From the NCBI RefSeq assembly GCF_048403405.1, contig NZ_CP183129.1: 64,000 nucleotides of DNA; one strand, written 5' to 3'. The DNA is from Escherichia coli. Lineage in GTDB: Bacteria > Pseudomonadota > Gammaproteobacteria > Enterobacterales > Enterobacteriaceae. Under the pieces are notes generated by a model. That model saw nothing but the letters and a program-made list of their open reading frames with translations. It was not told the origin of the DNA and did not search any database. Both the position numbers and the translations under genes were made by a program. This document shows positions 16,384 through 28,615 of the stretch, piece by piece (the first letter of the stretch is position 1; each line of letters starts with the position of its first letter).

Positions 16384-16738
16384 TACATTAAATCATCTGG
16401 TTCCTAAATAACCTTATTATGCACTGTAAGTGTATGTTGGCTTTATAAATTGCAATTTTTATATGGGAATTGTTTTGTCAATAGTTACGAAAAGGATAAA
16501 TAAAATAACCACATCTTCTTGGCGTCGAATATTGGAGAGCGATAATTTATAGTAAACTAGATTACCAGAGAAAAGATAAGTGGCAATATATTTGCTGGTG
16601 GCATTTTTATTAAATATTATATGTGTTGGTTTGTGACTTTAAAAAAATTAATTTTTAATAAAAAGGTGATTTATTTCTCATTTTGATTAATATTGAGGAT
16701 CCATTATGATTATCAGTTGTATGTCATAAAAATGAGGG

Positions 16739-16768
16739 GCTAAAAGCCTCAATGAATTGAGGCCTTTA
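16739..16768. terminator. hairpin downstream of the minus-strand recombinase gene
   Basis: AAAGCCTCAA..TTGAGGCCTTT near-perfect inverted repeat. Confidence 0.4.
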
Positions 16769-16777
16769 GAACAGGGG

Positions 16778-17347
16778 TTATATCTTCTTTATATCTAACA
16801 CATCACCCTCCCATACTCGTTTAAATCTTGCTGCATTACTGGCTGTATATAATACCGTATGATGTATATTTCTGTGCCCTAAATAATCTTGTATTAGTCT
16901 GGTGTCTAACCCTTGATTAGCTAAAGCATACCCACAACCATGCCTAAGCATGTGAGGATGAATATTAATATTCATATTGTGACTATATTTCTTACACATC
17001 TTATACACATATTGTCTCGAGATTTTATTTCCTTGACAAGAAAGAAATAAAGAGTCTTCAAAAGGTTTTTTTACTATGTTATCACGTAGTGCTAGCCATT
17101 TTTTTAATAACAGAACAGTTTCTTTTTGCAGGGGATGTACTGTGGATAATCCATTTTTTAAACGCTTGATATATATTGCTGACTCTGAAAAGTCAATGTC
17201 GCTAATCTTTAGTGCAATAAGCTCGCTTACCCTAAGGCCATGTACATATGCCATTTGTAACATGGCTTTATCTCTAATTTCATTTTTTGAACCGTTGATG
17301 GCTTCAAAAAATAACAACCATTCACTATGAGTAATAAATTTGCGCAT
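16778..17347 (-). CDS. ipbA: FimB/FimE-family tyrosine recombinase (IpbA-like)
   Basis: 189 aa; HxxLRH and GHRNIHHTVLYT motifs; symbol from recalled UPEC locus and may be swapped with ipuA. Confidence 0.7.
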   Translation of the reverse strand: MRKFITHSEWLLFFEAINGSKNEIRDKAMLQMAYVHGLRVSELIALKISDIDFSESAIYIKRLKNGLSTVHPLQKETVLLLKKWLALRDNIVKKPFEDSLFLSCQGNKISRQYVYKMCKKYSHNMNINIHPHMLRHGCGYALANQGLDTRLIQDYLGHRNIHHTVLYTASNAARFKRVWEGDVLDIKKI

Positions 17348-27600: not shown

Positions 27601-27647
27601 TCACACAGTGGCAGGAGGGGACCTCCTGCCACCTCAGGGTTGTCATA

Positions 27648-28178
27648 ATGAGTTCTGTAATGAAATTTTCTGTTGTTAATGCAGTAGTGCTGCTGTTGCT
27701 GATTGTACTTACTGGTGTTTTTTATATGAAAAAGTCAAAAGAAATTGCAGTTGTTAATATCGATGCTATTTATAATCAGTCTACCGCCGGAGACATGGCC
27801 AGAAAGCATCTGAATGAGGTTAAGAGTATTCTTGAAAAAGGATATGAGGATGCGCAAAAAGCATTCGCAGATAACGCGAATAAAGAGGCGCTGCTTCTTG
27901 ATGCCAGACAAAAACTGGAACGACAATATGTTATTGAGGAAAATAGCGCAAAAAAGGTGTTATCCCGTGCGATAGATAATGCCATAGGCACATGGAGAAA
28001 AGACAATCCTAAAAATATTGCCGTATTGTCTTCAGGTGTTGTGCTTGCGCATAACGAGTCAGCTGATATCACCAAAGAAGTCATGACTCTGGTTGAAAAA
28101 GAAAATCTGGTTTTTAATAAATTACCCAAAGTGGAAGTGCACAATAAGAATGAAGAGAAACCAGAACAAAGTAAGTAA
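27648..28178 (+). CDS. Skp/OmpH-like periplasmic chaperone
   Basis: 176 aa, N-terminal signal/anchor, helical and Lys/Glu-rich, 48 bp after the autotransporter stop. Confidence 0.5.
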   Translation: MSSVMKFSVVNAVVLLLLIVLTGVFYMKKSKEIAVVNIDAIYNQSTAGDMARKHLNEVKSILEKGYEDAQKAFADNANKEALLLDARQKLERQYVIEENSAKKVLSRAIDNAIGTWRKDNPKNIAVLSSGVVLAHNESADITKEVMTLVEKENLVFNKLPKVEVHNKNEEKPEQSK

Positions 28179-28615
28179 TCACTAGATTCTGACGATTTCC
28201 AGAAGGGAGATTCAGCAGGCCAGCATCTGTAATCATTCAGATTTGCTGGCTTGCTGCTAAATATGGTTGCTAAGAAAAATAGCAGACCAGTAATTTATTC
28301 AGATTACTGAATATAATAATTTTTCAGGAACGGTTATGCTGAAGGTAGTATGTTTAATCGACACAATTATTTGCTGTGTCTAATATGAGGTGACATTTTT
28401 ATGATCACTGACCAGCAAGACTGACCCGTATTGATTAGCCTGATTATTGGCAACTTATTGGGGTAGTCATTTTGACATCGAATGGGGGAGGTTTCCAGTT
28501 AAGTTCACGAATGCATGATGATTTGCGTTCACATATCGAAGTACTGGTTGACTATACTAAGGATTTTAAGATAACTCACTGATTGTAAGTGGGTTATTGC
28601 GAGGGGGATGATAAA

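Follow-up and report, generated by a model that had tools for sequence, protein, structure and literature searches.

The ipuS phase-variation locus and a neighbouring Skp-like gene between dsdC and argW in an Escherichia coli genome

Gene content and the ipuS switch

A stretch of 64,000 nt from contig NZ_CP183129.1 of the Escherichia coli assembly GCF_048403405.1 (the window) was analysed around a 12,258-bp block at positions 16358-28615, located between dsdC and a fragment of the transfer RNA (tRNA) gene argW. The block almost certainly represents the ipuB-ipuA-ipuS-ipuR-upaE locus of the argW-dsdCXA island, listed as PAI-CFT073-argW in a review (PMC7545054), and would work by the switching mechanism outlined below; the argW gene of this strain is additionally occupied by a lambdoid P22-like prophage. 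The order of features in the window was: dsdA, dsdX, dsdC, ipuB, a 747-bp intergenic region, ipuA, a 317-bp spacer, ipuR, upaE, a Skp-like gene, a 437-bp non-coding tail and a 15-nt end of argW. The initial annotation, made from the raw sequence, had named two recombinases, a LuxR regulator, a giant autotransporter and a Skp-like gene here, and all five were found in their places among the open reading frames (ORFs) and in the RefSeq annotation of strain MS 69-1. The switch and the genes around it were arranged as follows (aa, amino acids; GC, guanine plus cytosine; HTH, helix-turn-helix):

16778-17347, minus strand: ipuB, tyrosine DNA invertase of the FimB/FimE family, 189 aa (205 bits for NCBIfam PRK09870, short of the curated cut-off of 221)
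17348-18094: divergent ipuB-ipuA intergenic region, 747 bp, 28% GC (no ORF of at least 60 aa, no Rfam match)
18095-18724, plus strand: ipuA, tyrosine DNA invertase in its full-length 209-aa form, i.e. the OFF state (251 bits for NCBIfam PRK09870, exceeding the cut-off of 221)
18679-18685, plus strand: distal 7-bp inverted repeat of ipuS, TGACCCA, within the 3' end of ipuA (matching the description in PMC6083910)
18686-18946: invertible segment of ipuS in the OFF orientation, 261 nt between the repeats
18886-18906: terminator-like hairpin inside ipuS, scoring on the two strands alike, each of which has a T-run
18947-18953, plus strand: proximal 7-bp inverted repeat of ipuS, TGGGTCA
19042-19662, plus strand: ipuR, LuxR/GerE-type regulator, 206 aa (Pfam GerE, 7e-12; HTH at residues 141-193)
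19687-27600, plus strand: upaE, intact gene of an autotransporter adhesin of the AIDA-I type (type Va), 2637 aa (TIGR01414 barrel covering residues 2177-2637 with 397 bits)

The gene order was the same as in strain CFT073, with protein identities of 96.6-100% (100% for IpuB, 99.5% for IpuA, 98.1% for IpuR, 98.4% for UpaE and 96.6% for the Skp-like protein), and identical RefSeq records annotated IpuA, IpuB (under the gene name ipuB) and a 'phase-variable autotransporter adhesin UpaE'. Matches to NCBIfam PRK09870/PRK09871 confirmed the two recombinases as adjacent invertases of the FimB/FimE family, the promoters of which are presumably both located in the divergent intergenic region. No Pfam family was matched by the N-terminal 140 residues of IpuR.

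In CFT073, ipuS has been described as a 260-bp invertible element flanked by 7-bp inverted repeats, the distal one being located in ipuA, with a spacer of 317 bp between ipuA and ipuR (Battaglioli et al., 2018, PMC6083910). All these characteristics of the phase-variation locus were found in the window: the invertase pair, the element of approximately 260 bp with its 7-bp repeats, and ipuR and upaE following a spacer of 317 bp, equal to the published figure. The ipuS region differed from that of CFT073 at 6 of 383 positions. In the OFF orientation CFT073 encodes the full-length IpuA, while the ON orientation leaves the protein 11 residues shorter, with F in place of K as the terminal residue (PMC6083910). 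The in-silico inversion of ipuS in the window converted the 209-aa IpuA into a protein of 198 aa ending in ..DPF*, reproducing both the published truncation and the K-to-F change (PMC6083910, Fig. 1C). The published orientation assays are based on PacI (PMC6083910), and the single PacI site used in them, TTAATTAA, was present at 18924-18931, inside ipuS. Judged by the full-length IpuA, its truncation upon simulated inversion and the placement of the PacI site, the ipuS element of the window has the orientation published as OFF. Nothing contradictory to the identification was encountered: the locus is already known and experimentally characterised, and is not new.

According to the proposed mechanism, IpuA and IpuB, as well as FimE, FimX and, weakly, FimB acting in trans, would recombine the 7-bp repeats and flip the ipuS element of about 260 bp, as was shown in CFT073; a subsequent study (mSphere, 2019) confirmed the repeats and showed that each of the five Fim-type recombinases is able to invert ipuS (PMC6458436). 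In the OFF orientation present in the window, the promoter, which is located within ipuS (PMC6083910), would be directed towards ipuA, with IpuA being produced at full length and ipuR and upaE remaining silent. After switching to ON, the same promoter would drive ipuR and upaE, and IpuA would lose its 11 C-terminal residues. In this study ipuR and upaE responded, while dsdC and dsdX did not, their expression being unaffected by the ipuS orientation in reverse transcription quantitative PCR (PMC6458436). UpaE would then be exported by the type Va route and function as a surface adhesin, for which the published effects include biofilm formation, binding of extracellular matrix proteins, adherence to kidney cells and an advantage in colonisation of the mouse kidney. 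The near-identity of the two loci suggests that the mechanism shown in CFT073 also operates in the window strain. The hairpin at 18886-18906 could serve as the ipuA terminator in either orientation of the element.

Three points have to be set against this reading, none of which contradicts it. A single assembled sequence shows one orientation only, and inversion in the window strain is suggested by near-identity to CFT073. In a comparison of complete genomes with a 531-bp query (18550-19080), the switch region was OFF in 236 out of 236, being colinear throughout, so that ON cells had never provided the assembled consensus. Finally, a consensus promoter scan missed the published ipuS promoter, which matches at 4 of 6 positions in each hexamer, the total number of matches being below the shuffle expectation.

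The switch regions of the window and of Salmonella enterica subsp. diarizonae were identical over 23 bp around the distal repeat and over 27 bp around the proximal one, with only about half of the interior positions identical; conserved repeats with a diverged interior are the pattern that would be expected of functional recombination sites. The search for further ipuS-like recombination sites in the window, with 3 mismatches, recovered only the known proximal site, the distal one diverging too far outside its core, and there was no evidence of a second switch between ipuB and ipuA. No further switches were found in CFT073 either (PMC6458436).

The window locus shared with CFT073 its position between dsdC and argW, the gene order, the 317-bp spacer, the 7-bp repeats and the effect of inversion on IpuA, and differed in having a UpaE shorter by 12 residues (2637 versus 2649 aa, with 12 gap positions in the alignment) and in the presence of the argW prophage. 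Similarly to fimS with FimB/FimE and to hyxS with FimX, small tyrosine invertases flip a short promoter element next to their own genes; the control of a LuxR-type regulator and the cross-action of recombinases are further properties in common with hyxS (PMC6083910, PMC6458436, PMC7545054). In contrast to these two systems, the repeats of ipuS are of 7 bp instead of 9 and 16 bp, one of them is located inside an invertase gene, so that switching also alters the enzyme, and the output is an autotransporter instead of fimbriae. As a third invertible switch of uropathogenic E. coli, the locus has recombinases in common with the switch of type 1 fimbriae and influences the colonisation of the kidney, as has already been published. 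Another strain with this locus is one more member of the group and adds no knowledge about it.

UpaE combined in one polypeptide, free of internal stops, the N-terminal signal, the long passenger and the C-terminal 12-strand beta-barrel domain that characterise type Va autotransporters, and its C-terminal part was similar to AIDA-I, MisL and ShdA. Its N-terminus, MNKIYKVIWN, we take to be the beginning of an extended signal peptide, a reading supported by the precomputed Pfam ESPR match of the Salmonella homologue. Variation in repeat number was rejected as the cause of the 12-residue length difference, because the sole tandem array detected, which lies inside upaE, consisted of 3.4 copies of 12 nt.

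Borders, distribution and origin of the block

The features at the two borders of the block, including the first gene of the adjacent prophage, were the following (att, attachment site):

16358-16383, plus strand: island-derived last codons and stop of dsdC (by comparison with K-12 and EC11)
28179-28615: non-coding island tail up to the tRNA end, 437 bp, 38% GC (identical in MS 69-1, where it adjoins an intact argW)
28616-28630, minus strand: 15-nt copy of the argW 3' end, TGGTGTCCCCTGCAG, att core at the prophage junction, outside the island
28704-28904, minus strand: torI, excisionase-like, opening gene of the neighbouring argW prophage (listed for context)

The junctions were set at 16357/16358 and 28615/28616 by empty-site comparison with the island-less genomes of EC11 and K-12, in which the alignment with the window runs to 16357 and starts again at 28616. 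The block takes the place of a dsdC-argW segment of 109-113 bp, to which the four final codons of dsdC and its stop belong. In EC11 the empty site reads dsdC, 99 bp, argW and yfdC; in K-12 the same short segment is followed by an att fragment and torI of the CPS-53 prophage, the latter within about 185 bp of dsdC, which agrees with the statement in the initial annotation that prophage DNA directly follows dsdC in K-12. The left border had been placed behind dsdC, but homology to the island-less genomes ends 26 bp inside this gene and not at its stop codon. The initial reasoning from the raw sequence was accurate to within these 26 bp. The DsdC C-terminus reads ..REQVSQYECYTL / ..SQYECYTL in the window and ..REQVKTTS in K-12 and EC11. 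Island-bearing strains thus possess a DsdC with an altered C-terminus that is four residues longer; in CFT073 the protein has the same length of 315 aa as in the window and is 98.7% identical. The right border is the base adjoining the argW 3' terminus. The sequence TGGTGTCCCCTGCAG corresponds to the argW 3' end as annotated in MS 69-1, EC11 and CFT073, in agreement with the tRNA-Arg fragment expected on this side, and no tRNA-Arg gene was detected in the window by ARAGORN.

The GC content of the whole block was 43.5%. It was low at the left side (29% at 16358-16777, which had correctly been described as AT-rich), reached 32% over 16358-19686 and 33-38% in ipuB, ipuA, ipuR and the Skp-like gene, and remained at 32-38% in the block outside upaE, while upaE itself had 49% and dsdCXA 47-51%. 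Together with the low prevalence of the block, the 32% GC of the invertase/regulator part speaks for the identification as this island.

The block is strain-variable, as had been predicted: it was present in 257 of 5426 complete E. coli genomes (4.7%), 231 of which hold at least 80% of it, and presence in most genomes was not seen. The dsdC 3' end was matched in 2707 genomes, of which 236 run on into the block. Named carriers include CFT073, Nissle 1917, ATCC 25922, clone D i2, SMS-3-5 and CE10, while K-12 lacks the block. The variability of the argW-dsdCXA island is reportedly the subject of work by Moritz and Welch from 2006.

With its position at a tRNA 3' end and a deviating base composition the block resembles a tRNA-linked island; however, its only recombinases are the small invertases, with no integrating integrase of its own, and the opposite border showed no direct repeat of the tRNA 3' end. 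No transposase or integrating integrase was present in the block, no long direct repeats flanked it, and no second copy of the att core was found with 3 mismatches allowed. An Rfam scan of 16000-29500, at E-values up to 1, gave no match, and no convincing small ORFs were recognised in the AT-rich intergenic regions. The block probably came in at the argW hotspot in place of about 110 bp, and would no longer carry its own means of moving. Against gain rather than loss stands the absence of flanking direct repeats and of an island integrase. Ancestral presence at this site followed by loss from most lineages would account for these absences and also for the phylogenetically scattered named carriers (CFT073, Nissle 1917, ATCC 25922, SMS-3-5 and CE10), but it appears unlikely in view of the low GC content of the invertase/regulator part compared to dsdCXA, and of the occurrence of the same module at unrelated places: in an E. 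coli locus beside insertion sequence (IS) elements, on a phage-plasmid and in Salmonella diarizonae. Moreover, the dsdC 3' part of EC11 is 100% identical to that of the window up to the junction, yet is followed by a clean empty site, and the empty-site segment of 109-113 bp is conserved between EC11 and K-12.

The position of the block directly against the prophage att fragment, together with the fact that pairs of UpaE-like and Skp-like genes do travel on a P1-like phage-plasmid elsewhere, might suggest that the block arrived as cargo (moron region) of the neighbouring argW prophage. This origin is extremely improbable, and is refuted in practice by genomes that have the block without the prophage: the att core separates the two, the majority of carriers, among them CFT073 and MS 69-1 (block 100% identical), have the block beside an intact argW and no prophage, in K-12 the prophage end is present and the block is absent, and the query spanning the block-prophage junction was held at 80% or more by 35 genomes only. 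Since so few genomes hold this junction and most carriers lack the prophage, the hotspot has received block and prophage independently of each other. The presence of tyrosine recombinases at the edge of a tRNA-linked island might also suggest integrases for its own excision and integration instead of a promoter switch, which has hardly any probability left since the two proteins, with 189 and 209 aa, belong to FimB/FimE invertase subfamilies (IpuA scoring above the curated cut-off), tRNA-site integrases are far longer (approximately 340-400 aa; 343 aa in the phage-plasmid L007), no paired sites were found other than the inverted repeats at a distance of 261 bp, and the inversion has been shown experimentally (PMC6083910, PMC6458436).

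The Skp-like gene downstream of upaE

The last gene of the block follows upaE at a distance of 47 bp on the same strand:

27609-27632, plus strand: GC-rich stem-loop of 11 bp in the spacer that separates upaE from the Skp-like gene, not followed by a T-run (60-nt spacer at -24 kcal/mol, mostly from this stem)
27648-28178, plus strand: Skp/OmpH-like gene, 176 aa (RefSeq start at 27660 in some genomes, giving 172 aa)

The stem-loop could be an attenuator or an element stabilising the mRNA.

Taken alone, the protein gave a weak Pfam OmpH match (1.2e-3), no NCBIfam family and no PDB chain by phmmer, for which reason an alignment of remote homologues was needed. A full HMMER scan of 1.84 billion representatives produced 164 relatives, of which 64 were aligned. 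Pfam OmpH was matched by 41 of these 64 members, and the profile of their alignment matched OmpH-like PDB chains at 6e-5. The AlphaFold model, with a predicted local distance difference test value of 91.7, began with a hydrophobic helix, followed by a short strand, a long hairpin of two helices (residues 46-72 and 79-119) and another strand, which corresponds to the beta core and long alpha-helical tentacle of the Skp protomer fold. Foldseek ranks 1-10 in the PDB were occupied by E. coli Skp, the SkpA of type 9 secretion and a Caulobacter OmpH-like protein with a probability of 0.99-1.00, the next match having 0.18. Based on the OmpH matches within the family, the profile match, the predicted structure and these ranks, the label 'Skp-like' is sound at the level of the modelled fold.

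The model resembled E. coli Skp (HlpA; PDB 1SG2, 1U2M) in its predicted small beta core and long helical hairpin, with a Foldseek probability of 1.00. In contrast, sequence identity to Skp and other OmpH-family chaperones was 16-20% only, with no NCBIfam match, and the gene is located beside that of a single putative client, while skp of E. coli belongs to the bamA-skp-lpxD cluster. Chaperones of this family are further characterised by a cage of three protomers in which unfolded outer-membrane proteins are bound. In our own reading, the N-terminal hydrophobic stretch has no obvious A-x-A cleavage motif.

The pairing with a giant autotransporter was found in several other contexts. In 250 E. 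coli genomes the Skp-like gene was located 3' of one encoding a UpaE-like autotransporter. Strain S42 has the same pair at a second chromosomal site, beside IS elements and with a LuxR-type gene but no invertase, and on a P1-like phage-plasmid it is preceded by PapI/PapB-type regulators. In the two E. coli phage-plasmids of this type (L007 and L009; e.g. pAPEC201602, 51406-59908) genes of FaeA/PapI-type and PapB-type regulators are located upstream instead of the invertase switch; the UpaE-like gene is frameshifted in pAPEC201602, in which the Skp-like gene is present. A search of 28179-28615 for traces of the HTH gene located behind the Skp-like gene in the phage-plasmid found none. Outside E. 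coli, a contig of Salmonella enterica subsp. diarizonae (L004; GCA_017944985.1) encodes homologues of IpuA (an invertase, 80% identity) and IpuR (a GerE-type regulator, 65% identity), together with an autotransporter of 2632 aa and a Skp-like protein with 63% identity. An ipuS-like switch is located at 810-1217 of this contig, between the IpuA and IpuR homologues, with perfectly conserved recombination sites and a diverged interior. Because this contig holds all the parts, the whole module of invertase, switch, regulator, autotransporter and Skp-like protein exists outside Escherichia, as judged from its gene content. The pair was furthermore present in a metagenomic contig and on a Yersinia ruckeri plasmid, the Skp-like proteins being 44 and 31% identical, respectively. 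As to remote OmpH homologues with 28-31% identity, two of them (L016 and L017) had no autotransporter upstream, so that the linkage holds for the subfamily and not for all relatives, and three contigs (L012, L014 and L015) break just upstream of the gene.

The conserved core thus appears to be the autotransporter with its Skp paralogue, equipped with interchangeable regulatory front ends, and the occurrence of the pair in every E. coli context examined, in Salmonella diarizonae and on the Yersinia ruckeri plasmid suggests a dedicated chaperone. The Skp-like gene is probably the third gene of the switched operon and would encode a dedicated periplasmic chaperone for the 270-kDa UpaE. Against this stands the description of a two-gene operon in both experimental papers, as well as the 11-bp GC-rich hairpin that separates upaE from the Skp-like gene. 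The gene, although present in CFT073, is not mentioned in the main text of either paper (PMC6083910, PMC6458436), and literature searches for an autotransporter-linked Skp paralogue returned nothing relevant. More specifically, and only tentatively, since it may somewhat more easily prove wrong than right, we propose an unrecognised third gene of the ipuS operon encoding a client-dedicated Skp paralogue, possibly anchored in the inner membrane, that very large autotransporters of the UpaE type would need to cross the periplasm. Such a need would account for the joint movement of the two genes among chromosomal sites, the phage-plasmid, Salmonella diarizonae and the Yersinia ruckeri plasmid under changing control modules (invertase switch, PapI/PapB-type regulators or a LuxR-type gene alone). 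Should the paralogue be a dedicated chaperone, a type Va protein would have a periplasmic chaperone of its own, which is rarely seen, with consequences for the expression of such adhesins in other hosts. The conserved pairing of the Skp paralogue with giant autotransporters is the sole point of this locus apt for new work.

The prophage next to the block

Prophage DNA directly follows the 15-nt argW end in the window. From 28616 to 64000 the window is occupied by a lambdoid P22-like prophage in argW, a mosaic related to Kapi1, Sf101 and vB_EcoP-720R6; the first of these is described as an argW-integrating phage (PMC8787464). The prophage appears to reach the end of the window, which would place the intact argW outside it. 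Two tRNA genes, Asn-GTT and Thr-TGT, are located within the prophage at 44971-45126, and a related prophage (L003) has a tRNA-Asn gene just after the antiterminator Q gene.

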